Origin: Methanomassiliicoccales archaeon UBA280
GTDB lineage: Archaea > Thermoplasmatota > Thermoplasmata > SG8-5
DNA: 64,000 nucleotides
NCBI GenBank assembly: GCA_002499085.1
Contig: DAKD01000032.1
Coordinates: 1,315 to 65,314, forward strand
Direction of reading: 5' to 3'
This document shows, one piece after another, positions 189 through 61,898 of this stretch; the stretch's first letter is position 1, and each line of letters opens with the position of its first letter. The notes beneath the pieces were generated by a model that searched no databases, was not told the DNA's origin, and worked only from the letters and a program-made list of their open reading frames with translations. The position numbers were made by a program, and so were the translations under genes.

Positions 189-299
189 TTAGAGCAGTTG
201 GCATACAGCTTATTCAATTTAAACATTGCCATAAGGCACATTCATCGGGAGTTGGATCGGCATTCTCAATCCATCAGCAGAGATCCGACGATGGCCCGT

Positions 300-428
300 C
301 TCCCGTTCTGACGGTTAAATCAGGGCCATGAATTGCCATCGATTTGATAGCAAGAGGTGAATGCGAGGACTGAATCCCATCAGCCAATAGCATTCGCCAT
401 GAATCAGCAACCCGATTCAAAATGATTC
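300..428. repeat. Dispersed ~130-bp intergenic repeat, copy 1 (copy 2 at 21384-21522)
   Basis: Shared blocks CTCCCG..TGACGG..AATCAGGGCCATGAA..AGCAAGAGGTGAATGCG.GGA.CTGAATCCC..AGCATTCGCCATGAAT..ATTCAAAA in the same order and orientation. Confidence 0.75.
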
Positions 429-1789: not shown

Positions 1790-4141
1790 ATGATTGTGCC
1801 GGATTCCCTGGAAGAGAGGCATTACCAGGTCGCCATAGCCGAGACCGCGTCCGGCATGTCCACGCTGGTTGTCCTGCCCACAGGGCTCGGGAAGACCATC
1901 ATCGCGGCGCTGGTCGTGGCCGAGACGCTGAGGACGAAGAAGGGCAAGATCCTGTTCCTCGCGCCCACCAAGCCGCTTGTGGAGCAGCATGCCAGGTTCC
2001 TCAGGAAGCATCTCATTGCCGAACCGCCTGCGGTCTTCACGGGGGAAACTGCCCCTGCGAAGCGCAGGCAGATGTGGGAGTCCAGCCAGATCGTTGCGGC
2101 CACCCCGCAGGTGATTTCCAATGACATTGTTTCCGGCCAGATTGACCTGAACGACGTGTCCCTCGTTGTGTTCGACGAGGCGCACAGGGCCGTGGGCGAT
2201 TACGCCTACGTATTCATCGGCGAGAGGTTCAGCAAGGTGAAAGGCGGCCTGGCCATGGGCATGACCGCGTCCCCAGGCAACGACCCGAACCACATTTTGG
2301 AAGTCTGCGGCAACCTGCGCATCCAGGCTGTGGAAATAAGGCATGAGTTCGACCCTGACGTCGTCAGATATGTCCATGACATCTACATCAAGTGGGTTGA
2401 GATTGACGTTCCGCCTGAGATGATGGCTGTGATCCAGCACCTGAAGAAGGCCCTGGACGAACAGGTGGTGAAGCTCAGGAAGGCCGGGTACCTGAAAAGG
2501 ACCGGGTTCGTCAGCATGAAGGACCTTCTCGCTGCCCAGCGCCAGGTCAGCGGGCAACTGCAGGCCTCAGGCAACCAGCCGTCGGCATTCCAGGCCGCGA
2601 CCTCGGTCGCGATTGCGATGAAGATAAACCATGCGCTGGAGCTTGCCGAGACCCAGGGAGTCGCGGCCCTGAAGGCCTATTTCGAGAGGCTGATCAAGGA
2701 TGCGGTGTCGAGGGGAGCCAGCCGGGCCTCGAAGGAGGCTATAGCCCTTCCCAAGGTCCAGCTTGCCATGAAGGCCGTTAACCTGCTTGAAGCCATATCT
2801 GTGGAATCGCCGAAGCTTGCCAGGGTGAAGAAGCTGGTGGTCGCGCAGCTGAACCAGAAGCCGGATGCCAGGATAATCGTGTTCACGCATTACAGGGACA
2901 CTGCGGAGCTTGTCTCGGGCGAACTGGCCAAGATAAGCATAGTCAAGCCTGCGAGATTCGTCGGCCAGGCGACCAAGGGCGCGGACAAGGGCATGAACCA
3001 GAAGAAGCAAGTGGATATCATCGACAGGTTCCAGGCAGGCGAGTTCAATGTGCTGGTGGCGACGAGCGTGGCCGAGGAGGGGCTTGACATCCCATCCACC
3101 GACCTTGTGATATTCTACGAGCCTGTTCCCTCGGAGATAAGGAGCATCCAGCGCCGGGGCAGGACAGGCAGGCACAGGACCGGGAAAGTATTCATCCTGG
3201 TTTCCAAGGGCACACGGGATGTGGCTTACCGATGGTCCGCGCATCACAAGGAACACAAGATGCACAGTGAGCTGGAGAAACTGAGAAAGGAGCTCCAGAA
3301 TGACCTGAAGGTGGGCGGCCCCACAGCCCCGAGCTTCGAGAGCGCGGCCGCCAGGATACTGGGGGCGGGACATCCCGCCGAACCGGAGGCCCAGGACAGG
3401 AGCCAGCGCACACTCGGGGAGTTTGCGCCCGGACCGAAGAAAGAGGATAGGCTGAAAATCATCGCAGACACCAGGGAGTTCAAGTCATCGGTAGTGAGGC
3501 ATCTCGCTGTCAGGGACATCATAGTGGAATCCAGGCAGCTGGACATAGGCGACTACCTTGTCTCGGAGCGCGTCGGCGTGGAGAGGAAGGAGGCTGTCGA
3601 TTTTGTGGCTTCTGTCATGGACGGGCGTCTGTTCCAGCAGGTCAAGGCCCTGAAGCGGGCTTACCAGTCGCCGCTGATCATCATCGAGGGGGACATCAGG
3701 TCCGGAAGGCTCTCGGCCGAATCAGTCCGCGGAACCCTGGCTTCGATCGCCGTGGACTTCGGGGTGCCGATAATGTTCACGGCCGACGATTCCGAGACTG
3801 CGGAGTTCCTCATAACGCTCGTCAAGAGGGAGGCACAGGAGGGCCGCACCCCGGGAATCAGGGGCGAGAAGGGCACGATGCTGGTCCAGGAAAGGCAGCA
3901 GTTCATACTAGAGGGGCTGCCCAATGTCTCGGGCGTGCTGGCCCAGAGGCTCCTGTCCCATTTCGGCAGCGTTCGCGCCGTCATGGAGGCCTCGGTGGAG
4001 CAGCTCCAGGAGGTCAAGGGCGTGGGCAAGGGCATAGCCAAGGGCATCAGGGAGACCATTGATGCGAAGTATTACTCCAAGGAGTCGGAGGAGAGTCCGA
4101 AGGAAAGAAAAGCAGCATCTCCGAATGAGATGGGGAGATAA
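1790..4141 (+). CDS. hef: Hef helicase/nuclease (FANCM/XPF-family: DEAH helicase + ERCC4 nuclease + HhH2)
   Basis: PTGLGKT Walker A, FDEAH, VATSVAEEGLDIP and QRRGRTGR helicase motifs. ERCC4 motif GDYLVSERVGVERK. C-terminal HhH repeats (LPNVSGVLAQRLL, VKGVGKGIAKGI). Start moved to the Met at 1790. Confidence 0.93.
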   Translation: MIVPDSLEERHYQVAIAETASGMSTLVVLPTGLGKTIIAALVVAETLRTKKGKILFLAPTKPLVEQHARFLRKHLIAEPPAVFTGETAPAKRRQMWESSQIVAATPQVISNDIVSGQIDLNDVSLVVFDEAHRAVGDYAYVFIGERFSKVKGGLAMGMTASPGNDPNHILEVCGNLRIQAVEIRHEFDPDVVRYVHDIYIKWVEIDVPPEMMAVIQHLKKALDEQVVKLRKAGYLKRTGFVSMKDLLAAQRQVSGQLQASGNQPSAFQAATSVAIAMKINHALELAETQGVAALKAYFERLIKDAVSRGASRASKEAIALPKVQLAMKAVNLLEAISVESPKLARVKKLVVAQLNQKPDARIIVFTHYRDTAELVSGELAKISIVKPARFVGQATKGADKGMNQKKQVDIIDRFQAGEFNVLVATSVAEEGLDIPSTDLVIFYEPVPSEIRSIQRRGRTGRHRTGKVFILVSKGTRDVAYRWSAHHKEHKMHSELEKLRKELQNDLKVGGPTAPSFESAAARILGAGHPAEPEAQDRSQRTLGEFAPGPKKEDRLKIIADTREFKSSVVRHLAVRDIIVESRQLDIGDYLVSERVGVERKEAVDFVASVMDGRLFQQVKALKRAYQSPLIIIEGDIRSGRLSAESVRGTLASIAVDFGVPIMFTADDSETAEFLITLVKREAQEGRTPGIRGEKGTMLVQERQQFILEGLPNVSGVLAQRLLSHFGSVRAVMEASVEQLQEVKGVGKGIAKGIRETIDAKYYSKESEESPKERKAASPNEMGR

Positions 4142-4144
4142 AAA

Positions 4145-5179
4145 ATGTTGGCACTGAGCGTGCCCAGCAGGAATGCAGAGGCTGTGCGCCTGCTCATGAC
4201 AGAGCACGGCATGCTTGACAAGCATCACAGGATATTCAGTTCCGGAGGCATCACAGAGATTCCGGCGCTGGCCATGCCCCTTCCCCCGCTGATGGACGAA
4301 CTGGGGAAGCTCGGCGCGGGCATCATCGACTCGCGGGATTACGAGTGGCGCGAGACATTCAAGGACCCATTCAGGGACATACTGGCAGACATCGGGATCC
4401 CCGAAGCCCTGAAGAAGAAACTTCCGAAGAGATGGGAGCAGCTGGGCCGTGTCCTTGTGCTGAAGCTCCCCAAGGAGCTGGAGCCCAGGAAAGGGGAAGT
4501 GGCGAGGGCCTATGCCAAGGTCCTGGAGGCAGACACAGTCCTGCGGGACACCGGAGGCATCAGGGGAAAGTACAGGGAGCCGGTCATGGAGCTGCTCCTG
4601 GGCAGGAACACGGAAACCATCCACGTGGAGAACCAAGTGAGATTCTCGCTTGACGCTGCCAGGCTCATGTTCTCATCCGGGAATGTGGACGAGCGCATAA
4701 GGATGGCCTCTGTGCCGAAGCCCGGGGAGATTGTCGTCGACATGTTCGCCGGAATCGGTTACTTCTCGGTCCCGATGGCGGTGCATTCCAAGCCAGCGAG
4801 GATAATTTCACATGAATTGAATCCGCTGGCTTTCGAATACCTGAAGAAGAACATCGCCCTGAACAATGTGGGGGATAGGATAACACCTGTCCTTGGGAAT
4901 TGCCTGGACGCCGAGGAAAATATCGCGGACCGGGTGGTGATGGGATATGTCCACACGACACACGAGTACCTGCCCAAGGCCATGAGAATTCTCCGGGGAA
5001 AGGGAATCATCCATTACCATGAGACATGCCCGAACAGGCTCCTCCCCAAAAGGCCGCGGGAGAGGGTGAGGGAGGCAGCGAGGGATGCGGGGAAGGAAGC
5101 CGAGATACTGGGGATGGTGAGGGTGAAGTCTTATGCGCCGGGAGTGGAGCATGTGGTGGTGGACGCAGAGATTTATTAA
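4145..5179 (+). CDS. Trm5/Tyw2 (Met-10+) family tRNA methyltransferase
   Basis: AdoMet-binding block VVDMFAGIGYFSVP followed by HELNP. Size and layout are typical of archaeal Trm5/Taw2. Confidence 0.8.
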   Translation: MLALSVPSRNAEAVRLLMTEHGMLDKHHRIFSSGGITEIPALAMPLPPLMDELGKLGAGIIDSRDYEWRETFKDPFRDILADIGIPEALKKKLPKRWEQLGRVLVLKLPKELEPRKGEVARAYAKVLEADTVLRDTGGIRGKYREPVMELLLGRNTETIHVENQVRFSLDAARLMFSSGNVDERIRMASVPKPGEIVVDMFAGIGYFSVPMAVHSKPARIISHELNPLAFEYLKKNIALNNVGDRITPVLGNCLDAEENIADRVVMGYVHTTHEYLPKAMRILRGKGIIHYHETCPNRLLPKRPRERVREAARDAGKEAEILGMVRVKSYAPGVEHVVVDAEIY

Positions 5180-6621: not shown

Positions 6622-7269
6622 CTAGGCCTTTGAAGCCATCATCACAATCGACTCCCTCGGATATATCTGGCCTTCATGTCTCACTTTCCTCTCGATAATC
6701 TGGAAATGCCTGACAGAAAGTCCGGCGCCCTTGACCAACGAGTCAAGTTCCTGCCCGAGATAGAACCTCCAGACAAGGCCTTCTTCCCTGAGATAGGTGC
6801 GCGGGAATATCTCGGAGCCCTTGCCCGACCGCATGTCCGCCGGGGAAAAGACCTCGATGAGGACCATGCCCCTGGGCGCAAGAACCCTGGCCGTCTCCTT
6901 CAGAATGGCTTGGTCGTCGCCCGGGATAGCATGTGTGAGCACGTGCCTGGAGACGACAGCCGAGAACGAGTTGTCCCTGAAGGGAAGGTTCCTGGCATCG
7001 CCGACCACCCGATTGAACTTCGGATCCTTCATGAGGAAAGTCCGGAATGATTCGCGGGAGATGTCCAGGCAGACAAGGTTCCTGCAGTGCCGTTCGATTT
7101 CCGAGGCAGTGTTTCCGTCCCCCGAACCGAGTTCCAGGACATTTCCTGCGAGGTCAAGGAATTCGGAGTAGGCTGATAGATCAAATCCTCCGCGCCACTG
7201 AGTTCCTTTTCGGGCATAGGATGTATCCCAGGCCAGAGGATAGGTCTTTCGGTCGAGTTCAGCGTTCAT
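6622..7269 (-). CDS. Class I SAM-dependent methyltransferase
   Basis: Motif I VLELGSGDGN and post-I LDIS. Typical length. Confidence 0.85.
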   Translation of the reverse strand: MNAELDRKTYPLAWDTSYARKGTQWRGGFDLSAYSEFLDLAGNVLELGSGDGNTASEIERHCRNLVCLDISRESFRTFLMKDPKFNRVVGDARNLPFRDNSFSAVVSRHVLTHAIPGDDQAILKETARVLAPRGMVLIEVFSPADMRSGKGSEIFPRTYLREEGLVWRFYLGQELDSLVKGAGLSVRHFQIIERKVRHEGQIYPRESIVMMASKA

Positions 7270-7336
7270 CGTTCACCGCCGTTCCCGGTTCCGAAGTATG
7301 TCCAAATGTCCCGAAGGGACTTTGGATGCAGGAAAA

Positions 7337-7399
7337 ACCGCGCCACTGGGTGCCCTTCCTGGCGTAGGACTCGTTCCAGGCCAAGGGATACCGTTTCAT
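7337..7399 (-). pseudogene. Duplicated, diverged 5' end of the methyltransferase gene 6622-7269
   Basis: The minus-strand translation MKRYPLAWNESYARKGTQWRG matches codons ~8-28 of the intact gene (RKTYPLAWDTSYARKGTQWRGG). Most nucleotide differences are synonymous. The frame then runs into a repeat hairpin and stops at the real ATG. Confidence 0.7.
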
Positions 7400-7757
7400 G
7401 TCCAACTTTTCCGGGGAACCGCCCATGCACCCAATAAGCTGCTCATACGATATATCAGTTCCTCCGGGAACAACCGACCTTCAACATCTCATCGAACTCA
7501 TGAGAAACGAAAAAAGATAGAGAGAGTCGTTCCCATGCCAGAGCCTTCAAATTCGTACCCCGGCCTCACGGCCGAGGCTTTTTGTGTTGAGCTGCCCTCA
7601 TGAACGCTTTGCGAAGGGGCACTAGCTCACAAAATGATGTGAAACCCTGGCCTTACAGCCAGGGCATGCCGCTCAAAGTCGACGAACATGGCGCCAGGTA
7701 AGGCGGGGCAGGGTTGCCCCTTCACATTATATCTGAATCAGAAGTTTGGATACTGGA

Positions 7758-12246: not shown

Positions 12247-12621
12247 ATGACCGAAGAAAACACGGAAATGCTGGCAGAGCTGAAGAGGATAAGGAGGCTG
12301 CTCACGCCGGCCCCGGAGCCGAAAGGGCGCAAGGGGCTGATGGGCGAATTCCTTGACTTCGTTGGAAAGTACAAGATACTGGGACTTGCGGTAGCGTTTG
12401 TCATAGGCATGTACCTGGGCGAGGTCGTGAAAGGGCTGGTGCAGGGGCTGCTGATGCCTCTGATACAGCAAATCTTGGATCCAATGGTCCAAGGAGACCT
12501 TGTGGGAAGCTTCGATCCCTACAAACCCGGCCTGTTCATCATGGCTCTCATAACCTTCATCATCGTCTGCATCGTGGTCTTCATTGTGATGAAGATGGCC
12601 AAGAAATGGAAGATCGAATAA
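12247..12621 (+). CDS. mscL: Large-conductance mechanosensitive channel MscL family protein (with ~30-aa N-terminal extension)
   Basis: FLDFVGKYKILGLAVAFVIGMYLGEVVKGLVQGLLMPLI aligns by eye with the MscL TM1 consensus. A second TM helix and a basic tail follow. Confidence 0.7.
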   Translation: MTEENTEMLAELKRIRRLLTPAPEPKGRKGLMGEFLDFVGKYKILGLAVAFVIGMYLGEVVKGLVQGLLMPLIQQILDPMVQGDLVGSFDPYKPGLFIMALITFIIVCIVVFIVMKMAKKWKIE

Positions 12622-12713
12622 ACGTATATTCGATCCAAGGCAATGCGGTTTCACAGCGATGAAACTGCAAACGACATGCCCCGCCTGTGAGGGCGGGGTT
12701 TCATTTTAATAGC

Positions 12714-13048
12714 TGTATATGTGACAGGGCATTCTCAAGCATTTTGTTGCTCTGTATTTGGGGGCCTCGCCTGTAAGGGCGAGGGGGTCGGGTACTCACC
12801 TGACAGGCCTGAGTCAGGTGATATTTGAAGCTCTAACAAGACTTCGTCTCCCTCATCCTTCGAATTGCGCATTATAAACGAAGTTTGAAAAATCGTCCCC
12901 ATGCCAGAGCTGAGAAAATTCCTCCCCGGCCTTACAGATGAGGTTTCCTGTTAAAAACGCCCGAAAATGCACTCAACAAGCGCACTCAAAATGGGGTAAA
13001 TTTGAAACCCCGCCCTCCGTTCCAAATGTCCCGCAGGACTTTGGATGC
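12714..13048. repeat. Modular hairpin-rich dispersed intergenic repeat, copy X (related copies at 29592-30153, 7275-7670, 61657-61740)
   Basis: Shared blocks: TGTAT..GTGACAG.GCATT..TTTGTTGCTCT; GGGGCCTCGCCTGTA; GGGTC.GGTACTC + hairpin; TTCGTCTC.CTCATCCTTCG; AGTTTGAAA..TG.CAGAGC; CCGCCCTCCGTTCCAAATGTCCCGCAGGACTTTGGATGC. Confidence 0.8.
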
Positions 13049-13319
13049 CGCAAAAATGAGTGCTCCCCAAGCTAAAGCATGGGGTATCCATTAATTGTCT
13101 TCACCCTGAATTTCGTGATTATTTACCGCCAGTTACTCATTCAGGCAGATTCGAAAATGTTTGGAGCATACTGACATCGTGGGGAGCACTTTAATTGAAC
13201 AATTTCTCGCATTGGAATTGCATAAAAACGCCCTTATCCGCAGACTTAAAAGTCGCGGTATGCGGGCGAGAACATGTTCAATCATCCGGGGCATGCCGCA
13301 TTAGTATGTCCGAAAACGC

Positions 13320-15068
13320 CTATTTCTTCTGCATCTCGTAGAGCGCCAGCATCTCCTCGGAGTTGGTAGCGTCCTCCGGAGCCTTGTCCTTCCGTATGAT
13401 GCCAGTGAATCGGGGAAACCTGATGGCCAGGCCCGAACCTTTCCTCACGGCTTCCCACGCGCAGGTGTGTATGGGCGAGAGCGTTATCTCTGCGCCTTTG
13501 ACTTCCATCACCAGGCTGGGCTCGAACCAGAAGTCGGCCTTCATGGTGCTTCTGACCAGCCTGTGGGGCTTGCCTCCCTTCAGCGGCTCCAGCATCCCGG
13601 GCAGCGCTGCAAGCATTTCATCGTCGAAGCCGGTTCCGAGTTTTGTGACTGTCTCGAATCGCCCGTCTTCCCGGTTATACACTGCCATGAGCAGGGCCCC
13701 GTAAGCCCCGGCCCGCTTTCCCCTTCCGGAGAATCCTCCGACCGCGACAAGGTCGACAGTGTCGTTCATCTCCGATTTGTAGTCGCGCTTGAACTTTATC
13801 CAGTTCCAGCCCCTGGAGCCGGCGCGGTAGAACGAATCCTTGGCCAGGGATTTGGCCATCACACCCTCGCCGCCCTTGGCCACCACCTTGCTGAAGTACT
13901 CCTCGGCCTCTTCCGGGTCATCGGTGACAAGAACCTCGGCCAGCTTCACACGTTCCGACTCCCGGATACAGGACTCCAGTTTCTTCCGCCGGTTCGTGTA
14001 CGGGGTCTGCGTGAGGTCCTTTCCGTTGAGGTAAAGGCAGTCGAACAGGAACAGCATCACCGGAAAATCCTCCACAGCCGAAGTAAGTTCGTACTTGCGG
14101 CCCCTGCGGCGGCTGACAGTCTGGAAAGGCAGCATCTCCCCGGTGTTAACATCCACTGGCACGCATTCCCCTTCCAGGACCGCGGCCTTGCCTTTGAAGG
14201 CCTTGGCCAGAAGCCCGACCAGGTCCGGGAACTGGTCTGTCGTATTTTCCAGCTGCCTCGTGAACAATTCCACCTTCCCGCCCTTGATGTGGGCCTGTAT
14301 CCTGAGGCCGTCGTACTTGTACTCGAATGCGCATTTTCCGCCGAGCTTCTCCAATATCTCGGGTATGCCCGGAAGCCTTTCCGCCAGCATGGCCCTGAGA
14401 GGTATGCCGACCTCCAGCTCTATCTCATCCAGCCCGACGAGTCCCTTGGAGGCTAGAAGCTTCGCCACCCTGGCCAGGTCCGAGCAGGTGTTGTAGGCAT
14501 GCTCGACCCTGTCCCTGTCGTCCTTGGTGGCATAGGTCACGGCCAATGCGTCGATGAGCGTCATGTCGGCAATGCCGAGCCTCAGCTTTCCCGCAAGAGT
14601 CCGGGCTATGAATTTGGCTTCTACGGGTGAGGAATCGTGCATCAGCTTGGCCAGGAGCTTCAGCTTCAAATCCTGCGAGCCCGCGCCCGAGGCAGAGGAA
14701 ATATGAACCAAGCTGTCGAAGACATTGTCAACGCTCAGAGTGTCCGTGAAAAGGGAGGTCTGCTTCCTCCTGGACACTGCCTCGAAGGCCACTGTGCCCA
14801 GGTCGCCCTCCTTCTGCCATAATCTCTGGATTTCAGCTTCGCTGACGCGGGTGGCCTCGTAGATGGCCCTGAGGGCCAGCTTCTCGGCGATTCCGAGCTC
14901 CTGGCCTGCAAAATCGGGCGCGAGCTTGCCCTGGGTGAGGAGCACGACCTTCTCGATGTCGCCAGGCGGGATTTTCCTGAAAAGCTCCGCCAGCAGGTCG
15001 GTCATATCCAGGCGCTTGCTTGTGGCCTCGATTCTTGAGTAGGCTTGGGCAAGCGTGAGGTAGTCCAT
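13320..15068 (-). CDS. lig: ATP-dependent DNA ligase
   Basis: Adenylation motif EYKYDGLRIQAH (KxDG), plus EGVMAK and WIKFKRDY motifs. The 582-aa length is typical of archaeal Lig. Confidence 0.95.
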   Translation of the reverse strand: MDYLTLAQAYSRIEATSKRLDMTDLLAELFRKIPPGDIEKVVLLTQGKLAPDFAGQELGIAEKLALRAIYEATRVSEAEIQRLWQKEGDLGTVAFEAVSRRKQTSLFTDTLSVDNVFDSLVHISSASGAGSQDLKLKLLAKLMHDSSPVEAKFIARTLAGKLRLGIADMTLIDALAVTYATKDDRDRVEHAYNTCSDLARVAKLLASKGLVGLDEIELEVGIPLRAMLAERLPGIPEILEKLGGKCAFEYKYDGLRIQAHIKGGKVELFTRQLENTTDQFPDLVGLLAKAFKGKAAVLEGECVPVDVNTGEMLPFQTVSRRRGRKYELTSAVEDFPVMLFLFDCLYLNGKDLTQTPYTNRRKKLESCIRESERVKLAEVLVTDDPEEAEEYFSKVVAKGGEGVMAKSLAKDSFYRAGSRGWNWIKFKRDYKSEMNDTVDLVAVGGFSGRGKRAGAYGALLMAVYNREDGRFETVTKLGTGFDDEMLAALPGMLEPLKGGKPHRLVRSTMKADFWFEPSLVMEVKGAEITLSPIHTCAWEAVRKGSGLAIRFPRFTGIIRKDKAPEDATNSEEMLALYEMQKK

Positions 15069-15106
15069 GCTAAGCAGAAGGAAATGAGAATATTTAATCT
15101 ATGGCG

Positions 15107-17149: not shown

Positions 17150-17299
17150 TGCAATTATCTCGTCCAGAACGATCCTGACCATCTCGACTTCGACTGCGAG
17201 TACCTGTTTGATTAATTCAACAAGAAGGTCAGTCATCTCCAGGCGCTTGCTGGTCGCCTCGATTCCCTCGTAGGTTCGGGCAAGGGTGAGGTAGTCCAT
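17150..17299 (-). pseudogene. Displaced, diverged 5' fragment of the DNA ligase gene
   Basis: MDYLTLARTYEGIEATSKRLEMTDLLVELIKQ compared with the intact lig MDYLTLAQAYSRIEATSKRLDMTDLLAELFRK. After ~32 codons similarity is lost and a stop follows. Confidence 0.8.
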
Positions 17300-17353
17300 G
17301 GCAGGGAGATTGGGCTGAGAATATTTAATTGTGAGGAATGCCATGCGCCCGCT

Positions 17354-21312: not shown

Positions 21313-21383
21313 CTGCGCCGACTACCGTAATGTGTTGAATGCATCTGTTATCAGTTGATGGCTATGCATTCGACCATGGCCGG

Positions 21384-21522
21384 CTCCCGGGTTGACGGCT
21401 GAATCAGGGCCATGAAACATAAGCACTTGAAAGCAAGAGGTGAATGCGGGAACTGAATCCCGCAAAAAAAAAGCATTCGCCATGAATTGCCTATGAGATT
21501 GTTGCGCAATTCAAAAAAATTC
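21384..21522. repeat. Dispersed ~130-bp intergenic repeat, copy 2 (copy 1 at 300-428)
   Basis: Same ordered blocks as copy 1, in the same orientation. Confidence 0.75.
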
Positions 21523-21642
21523 GGTAATCAGCAATCTGGCAGCGCCATGATTACCGATAGATAGCTTTTAATACCGGCGCTGTCTAGATGCATTGTCCAG
21601 AAGATGAGAGATTCATCATCGTGGACAACAGGAGAAAAAACA

Positions 21643-26408: not shown

Positions 26409-26497
26409 GCCGTCTTTCCCGGTACATAAATAACGGGGACTCTTAAAAAGGTATTGATACCGGGAACTTGTCAAGAATTCAGGGATATTGGGACAAG

Positions 26498-26687
26498 TTG
26501 CTAGGGTCTAGGGTCTGCGCCAATAATATGGGATAAAGGGTCTAGGGTCTAGGGGAGCTGGCTTGGTTTGGACAAGCCAGCAAATGCGATTTGGAGGCAC
26601 CCTATGACCCTATCGCTGAATCAGAGATTCGGCTCAGTCGCGACACTTTGTCGCTCCTAGCCCCTAGCCCCTAGACCCTATGACCCT
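26498..26687. repeat. MITE-like element built from TAGGGTC heptamers, copy A (copy B at 37567-37748)
   Basis: The 5' part has CTAGGGTCTAGGGTCT...AAAGGGTCTAGGGTCTAGGGGA. The 3' part has the complement CCTAGCCCCTAGCCCCTAGACCCTATGACCC. Internal hairpins are GCTGGCTTGG..CAAGCCAGC, GAATC-AGAG-ATTC and GTCGCGACA..TGTCGC. About 90% identical to copy B by eye. Confidence 0.85.
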
Positions 26688-26752
26688 GAACCAAAATATT
26701 CACCAAGAATTAGACAGACCCATACCAGCCCAAGTACGACGAATCGCGGCGC

Positions 26753-29388: not shown

Positions 29389-29591
29389 ATTTCATACCTC
29401 CTGCGAGCGGTTTTCCCGCTTCTGATACTCAATAGTTTGGGCAGAGTATTTAAATGAGGTGGAAAAATGTGAGCAGTTTGGGTGCAGTTGACTCGGGCAG
29501 TTCGGAGCCGTTGAAACGCATATTCGTGGCAGCATGCCCCGGCTGATGGCGGCAATTTCCGGATTGAAGGCCGGGGTCGTATATTCTCATC

Positions 29592-30153
29592 TGTATGGGT
29601 GACAGAGCATTTTAGGGCAGTTTGTTGCTCTATTCTCGGGGGCCTCGCCTGTACGAGCATCGTAGCTCCTAGGCAAATCCCAACATCGATGCGAGTGAGA
29701 CGAATGGCCCATGCGCTTGTAAACGCCATTCGTTGCAAGGGCGGATGGGTCAGGTACTCGCCCAGCCTGTGCGAGCTGGGTGAAATTACGGGCTCCTGCA
29801 GGGATTCGTCTCTCTCATCCTTCGCATTGTACATAAAAGTAAAGTTTGAAAGAAACGCATCTGTGCCAGAGCTTGGTTTATGCGCGACCGCCCTCCGTTC
29901 CAAATGTCCCGCAGGACTTTGGATGCTGCCTAAAACAGGCGGGGCATGCTGCTTGACTTTTTTCGAACCATTGGATATACGAAACTCTTGAAAGTTTGAA
30001 AGAGACGATTCTGTGCAAGAGTTGATAAATGTATACCCCGCCCTGACAGGCGGGGCTTCCTGGGCAGAAAATACATTTGCGCAGAGATGCCGCTCAAGCG
30101 CACCCGATGAGAAAATGCATTTAAACCCCACCCTGGCAGGTGGGGCATGCTGC
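29592..30153. repeat. Modular hairpin-rich dispersed intergenic repeat, copy Y (full unit 29592-29926 plus a second partial module to 30153)
   Basis: Collinear with 12714-13048 apart from two indels of ~85-100 bp. Downstream module AGTTTGAAAGAGACG...CCCCGCCCTGACAGGCGGGG...AAACCCCACCCTGGCAGGTGGGGCATGC parallels 12880-13015 and 7515-7670. Confidence 0.8.
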
Positions 30154-37476: not shown

Positions 37477-37566
37477 TTACGTTCCCTATGTTTATGTGTA
37501 TAGGGTTGAGATATTTAGTGTTTTGGTGTTTGTGAGATTGTTATAATTTATTTGATATTGAGATTA

Positions 37567-37748
37567 TTGCTAGGGTCTAGGGTCTGCGTTTTCAAATTGG
37601 GATAAAGGGTCTAGGGTCTAGGGGAGCTGACTTGGTCTGGACAAGCCAGCAAATGCGATTTGGAAGCACCCTATGACCCTATCGCCGAATCGGAGATTCG
37701 GCTTAGTCGCGACACATGTGTCGCTCCTAGCCCCTAGACCCTAGATCC
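37567..37748. repeat. MITE-like TAGGGTC-heptamer element, copy B; its last heptamer provides the arcS stop codon
   Basis: Collinear with 26498-26687. The CTA at 37741-37743 (TAG on the minus strand) lies inside the terminal CCCTAGACCCTAG block. Confidence 0.85.
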
Positions 37749-39456
37749 TGTGCCTTATCCGCACTGCCTCGCCCCTGTCGGACTGGGCCATCTCCTCGCC
37801 TGGCATCCTGGCTGTTCCGGAGGCTGCCAGCTTCCCTGACCTGAGAATTGCGACCTCGTCGCCGACGCGTATCTGAGGGTCGGCCGACTCGACGCCGACC
37901 GCGAACAGGTTGCCCGTGAGCTCGAACTCTGACATGTGCACCGTGTGGATGCCGGCTCCGGCCAGGAGCTCCGCGCCTGCCAGGGTCGGAACCAGCATGC
38001 CATTGGCCTGGGATATGCTGGCCACCTGCTTCCTGTCCCTCAGAATCTTCACATTGGGATACCGCCCGGCAAGGGCGCAGCCCGAGAATATTTCCCCGGC
38101 CGGAAGCCCGAACTGGAACCCGGCCATGGAGGCTATTTCCTCGGATGAGCGGGATTTCCAGTCCTGGCGGTCCGGGGCCAATTCAGTAAGGGCTCGGGTC
38201 AGCGCTGCCAGGGACTCGTCCGATGTGGGGTTGGTGCCGCCGGTGACCCGGGCGTCGATGCCCTCCAGGAGCCTTGGGTCTCCGAGATGGTTTATTATGT
38301 GTGAATAATTATTAATTTTCAAATATTCTTTTAAGAGGATATTAATCATTCGCTTCTCGTCCTCGAACCAGTGGCCTGTTACGGGAATATCGTAATGCTG
38401 GGCCGGGAAGAACAGCTCCAGCTCCCTGGGCACCAGGCCAAGGGGGGAGGTGACTATGACCTCGTGGATTCGGGGGCCTGCGCGGCTCTGCTCGATTGCC
38501 CGCGCGAAGAAACCGTGGCTCTTGGACTGGGAATATGGCTTCCTGGCCGAGCACGGCAGAAGGACCAGGATATCGGGCGTCGGCGGCTTCCTGTACCTCT
38601 CCAGGACACGGTCCCTGAACCGGACTATGTCGGGCCTGCCCAGGGAAAGCCTGGTCGTGGCTGCAAATTTTCCGGAAACCAGGGGGAACCTGGATTCCTG
38701 ATAATGGTAGTGCTGCATGTCCAGGTGCCGGAGCATCTCAACCAGCTTGGGGGATGTCTTCGACCTGTATTCCACGAACTCGCGGATCGTGCCGTTGGCA
38801 ATCCTGGCCCGGGTGCGCAGGAGCTCGGAATGGAGGGCGGCAGTGTTGTGCGCATACAGGTTTCCCCCGGAACAGGCCTCGCAGGGGCACGGCTCCCTCT
38901 CCCCGCCCGCACTGAGCCATGCACCGTCCTGGGTCATGAACCAGCCCTCCGAGGAGAGAATCGCGACTCTGGCCGTGTCCAGGATATCCGCGCCCATATA
39001 GGCCAGGAGCGAGACGTTATTGGGCAATGCCACGGCCGGAAGGTACAGTGCGGCCTGGTAGCCGATGGCGTCCCTCACCCTCGCGACCGTGTCGATAAAT
39101 AACTTTGCATTATTATATAATTCAATTGAATTTTCCAAGATGAATAAATCTGCCTGGCCCCGCAGGGCTTTCAATGCCTCGGGATGGGCATTGAGCCTGA
39201 GAAGGCATGTGCGCTCGTGGAGAATAGGTTCGGCTCCAGCGTCCGAAGAATGCGGGTATCCGGAAAAATCCGGCAGGGAGATCTCCGTGCCCCCGGCCGA
39301 GACGGCATTGGCATCATTCCTCCTGGCCAGTGTAACCCCCGCACCGGGGAACCTCTCCGTGTCCAGCAACAGAACTGCGGGCGTGTCGATTCTCAGATCG
39401 CCCTCGGAATACCGCCCGATGCGGCCGCAGCCCGCCCTGGATATGACTTCGAACAT
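37741..39456 (-). CDS. arcS: Archaeosine synthase ArcS (TGT-like N-domain, Zn-binding CPCxxC, C-terminal PUA)
   Basis: TGT-like start (RIGRY...IDTPAVL), EPCPCEAC, a DUF5591-like middle and a PUA-like C-terminus (IRVGDEVAIL). Confidence 0.8.
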   Translation of the reverse strand: MFEVISRAGCGRIGRYSEGDLRIDTPAVLLLDTERFPGAGVTLARRNDANAVSAGGTEISLPDFSGYPHSSDAGAEPILHERTCLLRLNAHPEALKALRGQADLFILENSIELYNNAKLFIDTVARVRDAIGYQAALYLPAVALPNNVSLLAYMGADILDTARVAILSSEGWFMTQDGAWLSAGGEREPCPCEACSGGNLYAHNTAALHSELLRTRARIANGTIREFVEYRSKTSPKLVEMLRHLDMQHYHYQESRFPLVSGKFAATTRLSLGRPDIVRFRDRVLERYRKPPTPDILVLLPCSARKPYSQSKSHGFFARAIEQSRAGPRIHEVIVTSPLGLVPRELELFFPAQHYDIPVTGHWFEDEKRMINILLKEYLKINNYSHIINHLGDPRLLEGIDARVTGGTNPTSDESLAALTRALTELAPDRQDWKSRSSEEIASMAGFQFGLPAGEIFSGCALAGRYPNVKILRDRKQVASISQANGMLVPTLAGAELLAGAGIHTVHMSEFELTGNLFAVGVESADPQIRVGDEVAILRSGKLAASGTARMPGEEMAQSDRGEAVRIRHRI

Positions 39457-42852: not shown

Positions 42853-43140
42853 AGAAATTGTTGAATGAATTTGTTGCGAGATTGCTCATTCAAGGCGAAC
42901 GCCTTTATTTTCCATCCGAAGTCCTTTCCCTCCATCCGAGGCCTTCGGCACTCGGAACGATTCAGCTCCGGCGTTCACCGATTGCTCATAGGATGTTGCG
43001 AGCCGCATGGCCGCTCGAATCCGCTAAAATTCAATGCCGCGCCATGGTCGAACCTCTGCGCAGATGTGTCGGTGGGCGGTTCAACTTTCGTAAGGTGTTC
43101 ATGATAACATATGAACACTTTCGGCAACCCCCCGTCAATG

Positions 43141-60116: not shown

Positions 60117-61209
60117 CCCGAGGAACCACAGGGCCGTGGAGGAGCTGTACAAGATAGCGGACGAGATATACAACCAGATCGACAGGGGCCAGATACCCAG
60201 GATGAGCATACCCCTCAGGTCCAAGAAGAACATACAGTTCGCACCGCGGAAAGGTGTCTGGAAGTACGGAAACCTGCACGGGGTGAGAAGCGCCAAGAAG
60301 ATGACGGGCGCCTACATGCTCCTCAGGACGATGTACATGCTGGAGTTCATCAAGGACATGATAAAGGACCAGAAATCGTCCACGCTCAGGGAGATGTACT
60401 ACATCTCGGAGGGCTGGGGCCATGCCAAGTTCGGCTCCCAGGACGAGAGCAACAACCTGGCAGAGGACCTGGAGATTGTGACCACATGCATGAGGGAGGA
60501 CTTCAAGCTGCGGCCCGAGGAGGACGGGGCCAGGGTGATTGGCAACCTCACGCTGATGGAGACCAACCGAAAGGGAGAGAAGAAGAAGATCAACCTCAGG
60601 GACGACGTCGGGGATTCGGGCTACGGCATTCCCTTCAACGTCGAGAAGGACAAGATCAACCTGCTGGAAACCGACGCCAAGTTCGTTATCGCCATAGAAA
60701 CGGGCGGTATGTTCGACAGGCTGGTGGAGAACGGTTTCGACGAGGATTTCAACGCGATCATCCTGCATCTGAAAGGCCAGCCCGCCCGCTCGACCAGGCG
60801 GTTCATGAAGCGCCTCAACGAGGAGCTGAACCTCCCGATAGTGGTATTCACCGACGGAGACCCATGGTCCTTCAGGATATTCTCCTCCATCGCTTACGGC
60901 GCCATCAAGACCGCCCACATCTCGGAATACCTTGCCACGCCCACGGCCATGTTCGTGGGCATAACCAGCTCGGACATAATGAATTACGAGCTCCCCACCG
61001 ACAAGCTGAACGACAAGGACATAAAGGCTCTGCAGTCCGAGCTAACTGACCCAAGGTTCAAGGACCGGTTCTGGAAGGACGAGATAGAGCTCATGCTGAA
61101 GATTGGCAAGAAGGCGGAACAGCAGGCGCTGGCGAAGTACGGTTTGGATTTCGTGACCGATAAATATTTGCCCGAGAAGCTTACGGAATTGGGCATCCTC
61201 AAGCAATAG
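60106..61209 (+). CDS. top6A: DNA topoisomerase VI subunit A (Spo11 family)
   Basis: STLREMYY (catalytic Tyr region) and Toprim IAIETGGMF...FTDGDPWS. 11-nt overlap with top6B. Confidence 0.95.
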
Positions 61210-61387
61210 CCTGCATGGTCTTATGCAGGCAGGATGTACCGAGCGAGCATGCGAGGGCGAGTTTTCTCCGAAGATGGCGAAGCCGTCGAGGCCCCGCCGA
61301 CATCCGAAGGATTCGGTGAGGGTTTTGCTGAATATTTTTCTTTTGGAGCCCGAGCCGGCGCAGCGAGGTTAAAAGAAAAATACTCAG

Positions 61388-61483
61388 GCCGAGCAGCAGG
61401 CATTGGCGAAATACGGTCTCGACTTCGTTACGGACAAATACCTGCCTGAGAAGCTCACAGAATTGGGCATTCTGAAAGCATGA
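61388..61483 (+). pseudogene. Second, synonymously diverged copy of the last 31 codons of top6A
   Basis: Translates as [31 protein letters not shown], against [31 protein letters not shown] in the intact gene. About 17 nucleotide differences, nearly all at third positions. Confidence 0.8.
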
Positions 61484-61898
61484 TGTTGCAGCATGCCCCG
61501 GGTGTGCAACGAATTGCGAGCGAAATCGAATATTGGCAATTCGTCTTACTCACATTGATGCTGGAATCTGCTATTGGCTACAATGTTCGTGAGCCCGGGG
61601 TTGAGATTTCTCGCACCCTAAGTGCGCGTTTCACAGCGTGCATAGAATCCCTTCAAGCCTCGCCTGGCATTCAATTGCATTTTATTAGGGCGAGGTACTA
61701 TTTTCTTGGCTCTAGCACAGATTCGTCTCTCTCATCCTTTTCTACCAATCAACCACCCATACCGTGTCCGCGAGTTTTTCTTTTTGAGCTCCGAACTGTG
61801 CTGGCCAGCCCTGCGCAAAAAGAAAAATTCATTAATAGAAAAACTCCGGGCTGGCCTGCTCGTTCTCCGCAATGCTAGCGTTCAAGGAAACGCCAGTT

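Follow-up and report, generated by a model that had tools for sequence, protein, structure and literature searches.

Two stretches of about 340 bases, at 12714-13048 and 29592-29926, resemble each other in a window of 64,000 nucleotides from the genome of Methanomassiliicoccales archaeon UBA280 (GenBank assembly GCA_002499085.1, contig DAKD01000032.1). Both are intergenic and rich in hairpins. Are they decaying remnants, or is their structure maintained, and if so, in what molecule? The first-pass annotation of the window proposed a functional RNA or DNA structure and not decaying pseudogenes. The two stretches are true members of one family (elements 1 and 2), and this dispersed, modular family with covarying stems supports the proposal. 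It is a non-coding hairpin mosaic that has been copied as DNA; it belongs to one genus, lies at the 3' ends of genes and carries younger inserts in layers. We give a probability of about one half to the reading that it is a mosaic repeat akin to bacterial interspersed mosaic elements (BIMEs) and miniature inverted-repeat transposable elements (MITEs), copied as DNA, with hairpins retained probably in RNA at gene 3' ends. The genome of the window is labelled G000 and its contigs carry C-labels; the genus, which is uncultured and related to Methanomassiliicoccales, comprises G000 and seven other species (eight genomes), and the family occurs in all eight and hardly anywhere else.

Anatomy and range of the repeat

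Segments 12690-13056 and 29568-29952 align collinearly, and their conserved blocks are parted by large indels, as had been described. A repeat finder run on the window returned the same blocks as repeat families D9, D10 and D13 and inverted pair I17. The order of parts was taken from an alignment of the best genome-wide copies together with the flanks of 32 copies from eight genomes. A complete element has about 350-390 nt and no coding function; its borders are two inverted GC-rich hairpins of the form GCAGCATG-CCCCGCCTG-TGAG-GGCGGGG-TTTC. First come the left terminal GC hairpin with its T-rich tail, an A/T-rich spacer of about 20 nt, the conserved block B1 and hairpin H2. Next come H3, H4, a GC hairpin of opposite orientation, a CAAGCGCACTC module and the right terminal GC hairpin, which is an inverted copy of the left one. 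The left terminal hairpin shares the orientation of H2; the right terminal hairpin and the one that follows H4 are opposite. A fixed tag, GCATG / CATG, marks the hairpin foot. In the cleanest copy (C5:8987-9371, 385 nt) the outer 17/17 nt of the two ends are complementary. The terminal inverted repeats of element 2 measure 26 nt and are 81% complementary (I17: 29529-29554 vs 29927-29952).

Six blocks had been named. Block 1 is conserved as sequence and has no supported hairpin, while blocks 4 and 5 are real and form the two arms of H4. Block 6 does recur, but it is a separate, younger mobile hairpin (M7) within the loop of the right terminal hairpin. B1 occurs in two sequence variants across copies; RNAalifold predicts 0 pairs in 33 copies, and B1 is thus rejected as a hairpin. 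The GCCTCGCC/GGCGAGG stem has the variable loop ascribed to it, as a 90-nt indel (29654-29744) falls exactly inside this loop in element 2. The covarying hairpin pair also exists, though 8-12 nt away from where it had been placed; it is H3, with the sequence TCACCTGAC-AGGCCTGA-GTCAGGTGA in element 1 and TCGCCCAGC-CTGTGCGA-GCTGGGTGA in element 2 (positions in Table 1). The segment at 12917-13003 (~85 nt) was considered as an insert and rejected; it belongs natively to full elements, where it comprises the GC hairpin past H4 and the CAAGCGCACTC module, and element 2 is without it. The CAAGCGCACTC sequence is the reverse complement of GAGTGCGCTTG, which is found on the left side of variant-II copies.

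Element 1 lies between genes for MscL (12247-12621, + strand) and an ATP-dependent DNA ligase (13320-15068, - strand). Its left terminal hairpin lies 54 nt past the stop codon of mscL and, as scored at 12678-12699, resembles an intrinsic terminator (9 pairs, 7 of them G-C, and a T-rich tail). Some copies have a small hairpin, GGTTTCA-CAGCGA-TGAAACT followed by GCAAAC, upstream of the left terminal hairpin (window 12647-12666); the same hairpin is found in G006 (about 1415-1440 of the locus) with a compensated stem, AGTCTC/GAGACT.

Element 1 has no long reading frame, and a 279-aa frame over element 2 and two other frames have no Pfam match. No frame is common to the copies. A coding or pseudogene origin was rejected on these grounds.

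Copies occur throughout the genome and the genus. G000 is rich in repeats: 385 regions, amounting to ~70 kb, have at least three self-matches. An nhmmer profile found about 10 near-full and more than 50 partial copies in G000. Within the window it recovered the partial copies that had been described, at 7510-7593, 29957-30065 and 61655-61743, and the associated GC hairpins are also as described (7641-7672, 12676-12705 in opposite orientation, 30037-30058 and 30124-30150). At E <= 0.001, a covariance model (R1) built from nine copies matched G000 at 41 places and every one of the seven congeners at 7-44. At E <= 1e-5 there are 3-35 matches per member of the genus and 0-1 in each of the order's remaining 14 genomes. 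Overall, R1 gives 31-41 matches in G000 and 3-44 in any other species of the genus. The exact H3 pattern was sought in one genome for each of 185,579 species. Multi-copy matches came from six metagenome-assembled genomes (MAGs) only, labelled Thermoplasmata, Methanomassiliicoccales or Methanobacteriota archaeon; single matches came from two further Methanomassiliicoccales MAGs, and about a dozen were bacterial. A profile of terminal-type GC hairpins had 71 matches, 70 of which are intergenic. GC hairpins with exact arms number 4-20 in each of the 8 genomes, and reversed hairpin patterns, which control for chance, gave 0 matches.

The family has no match to a known gene, insertion sequence (IS), Rfam family, plasmid or phage. 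In the window only 5S rRNA reached the Rfam gathering score, with chance-level matches alone at E up to 5, and a known RNA family was therefore rejected. Viral contigs, plasmids and phages gave no match, which led to the rejection of an origin from them. Targeting by CRISPR was likewise rejected, as 0/39 spacers of the resident array match the rest of the genome. A repeat with ~17 self-matches is located just upstream of the CRISPR-cas locus (window 42860-43058). The most abundant repeat of the window is a separate one with (GGGTCTA)n arms, at 26462-26723 and 37531-37752, which has ~50 self-matches per base.

Table 1. Parts of the repeat, its inserts and its partial copies in the window
Feature	Position	Strand	Evidence or remark
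Left terminal GC hairpin, element 1	12675..12707	+	CATG tag, CCCCGCC(T)/(G)GGCGGGG stem, GTGA loop, tail TTTCATTTT
B1, conserved primary sequence, core GCAWTCTSRGGCAWTYTG	12720..12755	+	sequence alignments of copies
H2, internal GC hairpin GCCTCGCC-TGTAAG-GGCGAGG	12764..12784	+	covariation
H3, conserved base CTCRCC/GGYGA, covarying 3-4-bp tip, variable loop	12796..12821	+	covariation, two alignments
H4, ~81-nt imperfect palindrome GCTCTNRCA...TGCCAGAGC	12830..12910	.	long-hairpin fold in ~10 copies
Second-half GC hairpin, degenerate, CCCCGGCC-TTACAG-ATGAGG, tail TTTCCTGTT	12921..12948	+	TACCCCGGCCTCACAGCCGGGGCTTG and related hairpins there in other copies
Right-arm module GAAAATGCACTCAACAAGCGCACTCAAAATG	12955..12995	+	native; present in C5, C36 and G007 copies, absent from element 2
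Right terminal GC hairpin, left arm GAAACCCCGCCCT	13003..13015	+	parted from right arm by two nested inserts
M7, mobile hairpin CCGTT-CCAAATGTCC-CGCA-GGACTTTGG-ATGCCGCAAAAA, 45 nt	13016..13054	+	nested in right terminal hairpin loop
R220, recent insert, 217 nt	13055..13271	+	absent from G003 and G007 orthologous spacers
Right terminal GC hairpin, right arm CCGGGGCATGCCGCA	13286..13300	+	on minus strand comes after DNA ligase gene
Left terminal GC hairpin, element 2, GCAGCATG-CCCCGGCTG...AGGCCGGGG-T	29529..29579	+	22-nt loop insert; I17 pairing
Element 2 core: B1, H2 arms 29644-29651 / 29746-29753, H3 29758-29783, H4 29792-29872	29595..29875	+	189.5 bits, model 1-197
Right terminal GC hairpin, element 2, ACCGCCCT / CCGTT..M7..CTAAAAC / AGGCGGGGCATGCTGC	29883..29952	+	M7 in loop
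Partial second unit	29957..30150	.	H4 half 29991-30021; GC hairpins 30037-30058, 30124-30150
Module-shuffled partial copy	7301..7672	.	M7-like hairpin 7301-7329, H4 half 7513-7543, GC hairpins 7557-7582, 7641-7672
Partial copy	61621..61743	+	expanded-loop GC hairpin GCCTCGCC...GGCGAGG, then H4 5' arm 61708-61739

Covariation, strand and conservation

Thirty-six copies were aligned to R1, and this alignment is thus fitted to the model. H2 is 98.1% paired and has double changes in 5/6 pairs. H3 is 98.4% paired; four of its pairs are double-changed, with 14, 16 and 9 double-change cells at three of them. The observed score was attained by 0/500 shuffles, and slid partners pair only 32-48%. Because the first alignment was fitted to the model, H3 was repeated on a plain MAFFT alignment; RNAalifold gives the same nine pairs and the same counts there. 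Covariation is therefore present in both the model-fitted and the independent alignment. The secondary structure is backed by covariation for H2 and H3; support is weak for H4 and absent for B1.

Wobble pairs show which strand folds. The ratio of G-U to A-C is 43:1 in H2 and 17:3 in H3. As G-U is common and A-C rare, one strand folds, and only this strand tolerates wobble pairs in the two hairpins. The terminal hairpins also differ between strands: 41 simple-loop hairpins from the 71 terminal-type matches were folded, and the CATG...TTTC strand folds at -17.6 kcal/mol vs -14.5 for the opposite strand (p = 7e-9). Their loops are GUGA or GUAA in ~29/41. At least five T are found in the next ten bases of 16 copies, against 3.

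The spacer between mscL and the ligase gene (lig) holds an orthologous element in three species. Identity to G000 over the element is 82% in G003 and 70% in G007. In the same species identity is only 0.42-0.55 at four-fold degenerate sites of mscL and lig, and 75-80% over all nucleotides of the two genes. The G003 ortholog is nearer to the window copy than is any G000 paralog (~70-76%); homogenisation among paralogs thus fails to explain the similarity. At the ligase 3' end, four copies (G000, G003, G007 and G006) have four different, fully paired stems in each of H2 and H3. The left terminal hairpin of the G007 ortholog is fully recoded yet paired, CCCTGGGC/GCCCAGGG. As judged from these sequence comparisons, the orthologous copies are not decaying: they evolve at a rate several times below that of four-fold sites, and the changes in their stems are compensatory.

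Placement, movement and nested inserts

Placements were derived from a codon-usage gene caller, which is crude and misses some genes. Convergent spacers hold 17 copies, tandem spacers 7 and divergent spacers 1. Convergent spacers make up 27% of spacer length (convergent excess p = 2e-5). Most GC hairpins (51/69) come after a co-oriented gene, often 20-60 nt past the stop codon. Spacers of <100 nt are nearly repeat-free, and approximately half to two-thirds of 200-1000-nt spacers hold repeats, a rough figure given the genes that are missed. Repeats had been said to account for the long spacers; this is so for many of them and not for all.

The basic brick is a GC-rich hairpin like those of the bacterial repetitive extragenic palindromic (REP) sequences, with the fixed GCATG tag. 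Two inverted bricks bound the element, and its interior comprises B1, H2 as a third brick, H3 and the palindrome H4. The element has been duplicated as DNA within genomes and gained or lost at some syntenic sites, and its loops accept younger small mobile modules, namely M7, a ~90-nt module and R220. On the preferred reading, the folded strand is most likely RNA because the tails are terminator-like, the loops are of GNRA type, the hairpins lie past stop codons and conservation is at the level of the host; it would form part of transcripts of the neighbouring gene, as read-through or 3'-untranslated region (3'-UTR). There, U-tailed GC hairpins may act as terminators or as structures that protect 3' ends, as in bacterial REP/BIME.

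The fold could also be that of stand-alone small structured RNA genes. Each would have its own promoter in the A/T-rich patch after the left hairpin, end at the post-H4 GC hairpin with its T-rich tail, and act in trans via B1 and the variable H3 loop. Strand-specific wobble tolerance, purifying selection at orthologous loci and the conserved unpaired block B1 agree with such genes. Most copies have an A/T-rich patch of 10-14 nt at a fixed distance upstream of the core and a T-tailed hairpin downstream, and five copies run antisense to the genes on both sides, so that any transcription of them would call for a promoter of their own. However, the patch has no consistent TATA or B recognition element (BRE) consensus among paralogs, many copies are truncated or module-shuffled, congeners have anything from 3 to 35 copies, genomes outside the one genus lack the family, and no Rfam relative was found. 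Small RNA genes are considered unlikely.

Eleven elements in other species have flanks that are syntenic in G000; the element is present in G000 at 7 of these sites (often as fragments) and absent at 4. One absent site is a 12-nt spacer in G000 vs ~600 nt in G006. Segments that are 92-95% identical are common to several copies. A copy in G005 is preceded by ~26 nt of the 3' end of an aminopeptidase gene, and the same gene end stands before two other copies, a sign that duplication was imprecise and took flanking sequence along. Gene ends also recur as orphan copies (73-80% identical) beside repeat modules in the window (7190-7242 vs 7338-7390, 61112-61202 vs 61386-61476, and 14946-15098 vs 17177-17329). 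Together with the G005 copy, these orphan ends suggest flank-carrying duplication or recombination at the repeats.

Orphan gene ends would also be left by integrative elements. The repeats would then be scars, arrays of att-like sites and element ends produced by site-specific recombination at gene ends. The first two pairs listed above would fit, as would the third, in which an insert bearing an integrase (fragment) duplicates the 5' end of lig. Yet no duplicated gene end borders either of the main copies, and the element, which has inverted ends of its own, is built as a fixed unit of several hairpins. There are just 3 integrase matches vs ~40 elements, and the orthologous copies are conserved and not decaying. 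Scarring is very unlikely to account for the family.

M7 illustrates how the loops are filled. It has 30 copies in G000, in several unrelated contexts, and sits in the right terminal hairpin loop of both window elements. Its stem is Watson-Crick in 266/270 cells and covaries at pairs 3/21 and 8/17. Across the genus there are 25, 39, 11, 11 and 1 copies in five species and 0 in three. When the MscL-ligase spacer is aligned across the three species, all have the element, G000 and G003 but not G007 have M7, and G000 only has R220; the right terminal hairpin of the G003 ortholog accordingly reads arm - M7 - arm, without R220. A clean case of filled vs empty M7 site is found upstream of the IS200-type transposase gene discussed below. 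M7 is also held at a fixed internal position by a repeat family CCTGCTCGAAAA…GGTTGGCCGGGTGCCC…GCAATT (C2:49665, C22:128462, C7:31485, C36:30763), which matches TTTTCGAGCAGG units.

R220 is non-coding and 217-290 nt long. Five to seven copies are 98.6-100% identical, which indicates recent activity; the window copy is 99-100% identical to four others in the genome, on C9 (33317-33605), C5 (30820-31107), C22 (45936-46225) and C6, and ~81% to two older variants (C13, C6). The ~90-nt module in the H2 loop of element 2 (29654-29744) also has separate copies on eight contigs, including C12 and C26. Where GC hairpins have the same arms, their loops range from 4 to ~100 nt and hold many different inserts, and nested inserts differ between G000 and G007 at the orthologous C36 locus. 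This layered nesting of M7, the ~90-nt module and R220 in loops gives the family its modular, indel-rich look.

G000 has one transposase gene of the single-tyrosine (Y1) type, tnpA, at C21:3130-3576, with a fragment beside it. The protein scores 113 bits on the IS200 model NF033573 and 23 bits on the model for REP-associated tyrosine transposases (RAYTs; cutoff 80). The gene is single-copy in 7/8 genomes, with 60-70% identity to most and 93% to a disrupted G005 copy, and synteny is partly kept. No tnpA was found in G001, which has 39 M7 copies, and M7 is absent from three genomes that bear tnpA. As M7 is found beside tnpA on C21, M7 was considered as the REP of this transposase. This was ruled out, since M7 there is a G000-only insertion (G002 and G004 have the empty site) and M7 counts do not parallel the presence of tnpA. 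A TnpB / omega-RNA origin was rejected because the genome has no TnpB domain.

The 3' side of tnpA carries not GC hairpins or M7 but a repeat of ~130 nt, element A (…GGCCCGGCA…CAGCTAAATC…GGTGAATGCG…GCATTCGCCATGAAT). Element A has ~18 self-matches and is found at window 280-410 and 21358-21557 and on C21 at 2258-2378, 3586-3727 and 4056-4190; six copies hold M7 in the last hairpin loop. As its sequence lies directly 3' of the IS200-type tnpA in five species, its scattered copies may have arisen as miniature versions of the end of that IS. Just upstream of tnpA is a cassette (C21 2375-3576) with a 106-aa open reading frame and a 110-aa, antitoxin-like protein with a zinc finger of the YgiT/MqsA type. 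In G002 and G004, too, this gene end stands before tnpA.

Such an enzyme is central to another explanation. The family could be purely selfish, resembling MITEs or the inverted REP doublets called REPINs, with hairpins kept for a structure-specific enzyme that acts on single-stranded DNA; this could be the single-copy HUH/Y1 transposase or another enzyme, and the strand asymmetry would reflect processing of the top strand. The layout is like that of a REP doublet, with inverted terminal hairpins and the GCATG tag at the foot, and the single-copy tnpA with its partly conserved synteny is a candidate. Presence/absence polymorphism, hairpin-in-loop nesting and the flank-carrying G005 copy can be read in the same way, and bacterial REPINs are described as persisting vertically in the long term (bioRxiv 10.1101/2021.07.10.451892). 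However, the TnpA is of the typical IS200 subclass and its gene is flanked by element A, not GC hairpins. No other subclass is known from Archaea, and REP/RAYT systems belong to bacteria (PMC6006769). With most copies 70-80% diverged, a recent burst has not taken place, and selection for transposability fails to explain orthologous copies that are conserved and immobile. A purely selfish element is an improbable explanation. A further idea is doubtful: that replicator and host form an arrangement akin to REPIN/RAYT, inherited vertically and so far undescribed, with ~20-40 elements per genome and a one-strand fold kept, copied by a structure-specific enzyme (the IS200-type Y1 or another), in which the loops would be programmed landing pads for miniature hairpin elements. 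If true, such a system would be without precedent in Archaea, as would one based on hairpin-in-loop nesting.

Several observations weigh against the preferred reading of a DNA-copied repeat with hairpins kept in RNA at gene 3' ends. H4 is only 70-83% paired in the 36 copies, and its G-U to A-C ratio of 49:67 shows no strand asymmetry. In tandem spacers 2 copies are co-oriented and 5 antisense, element 2 among the latter; the five are a poor fit with a pure 3'-UTR role. G002 keeps only 3 R1 matches at E <= 1e-5, which means that the majority of copies can be dispensed with. For termination in Archaea, U-tracts alone are generally considered sufficient. As for copying, the C5 and window copies show no direct repeat at their borders that would mark a target-site duplication, and no empty site turned up that was clean and had exact borders. 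Searches of the genome for Y1 and TnpB found no cognate transposase for the element, and none adjoins the 36 copies examined, where no genome-wide search for IS ends was run.

Relation to known repeat systems

No earlier description of a defined, covariation-supported family of the REP/BIME type in Archaea was found in the literature. RepRanger (PMC12306157), the sole broad survey found, counts generic palindromes only. What sets the present family apart is that old copies are kept under selection for their folds. Selfish spread and retention at the level of the host should be separable here, because orthologous copies outlast silent-site saturation with compensated stems. The family also draws attention to GC hairpins that resemble terminators, in a lineage for which U-tracts alone are considered sufficient for termination. 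It accounts for many long spacers and contig breaks in these MAGs, and the covariance model could be used for annotation.

MITEs are small, non-coding and have inverted ends; they include the modular BOX elements of Streptococcus pneumoniae and the Correia elements of Neisseria. The family shares with them inverted ends, modular and foldable structure, intergenic location and polymorphism between relatives. It differs in that no target-site duplication or same-ended parent IS was found, without a genome-wide search for IS ends, and in that its terminal repeats covary in sequence yet keep their structure; a transposase that reads the sequence would not put up with such change.

As short conserved hairpins, M7 and element A resemble the subterminal hairpins of IS200/IS605 and their miniature derivatives, the palindrome-associated transposable elements (PATEs), and element A lies directly 3' of tnpA in five species. 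Unlike these, M7 has a copy number that does not parallel the presence of tnpA, and the M7 beside tnpA in G000 is an insertion that G002 and G004 are without.

REPINs are inverted REP doublets (Bertels and Rainey 2011, PMC3116915). As in REPINs, two inverted hairpin repeats form the copied unit, which is non-autonomous and vertically inherited, and the genome has a single-copy Y1 gene. However, the hairpins here are separated by ~300 nt of structured spacer instead of a short linker, and any link of the element to the Y1 gene would be hypothetical.

Together with REPINs and MITEs, the REP/BIME sequences of Enterobacteria and Pseudomonas are the nearest known systems. Both they and the archaeal family are short GC-rich extragenic palindromes with a fixed foot tag; a genome has tens of them, located past the 3' ends of genes and in convergent spacers. 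Both alternate in orientation, form mosaics with other motifs, persist vertically for a long time, and have proposed roles in termination or mRNA 3'-end protection. The REP tag is a conserved GTAG or CGTC tetranucleotide at the hairpin foot (PMC3733652), whereas the tag here is GCATG and the host an archaeon. There is no RAYT; the sole Y1 is a typical IS200 TnpA without GC-hairpin flanks. The unit here is fixed at ~385 nt with the additional H3 and H4, and its loops serve as insertion sites. Without the REP tag and a RAYT, and with no target duplication seen, the family is better classed as a variant than as a member of REP/BIME, REPIN or MITE. Dispersed mosaics of the REP/BIME type are well studied in bacteria, and this family may be regarded as an archaeal counterpart of REP/BIME or MITE repeats.

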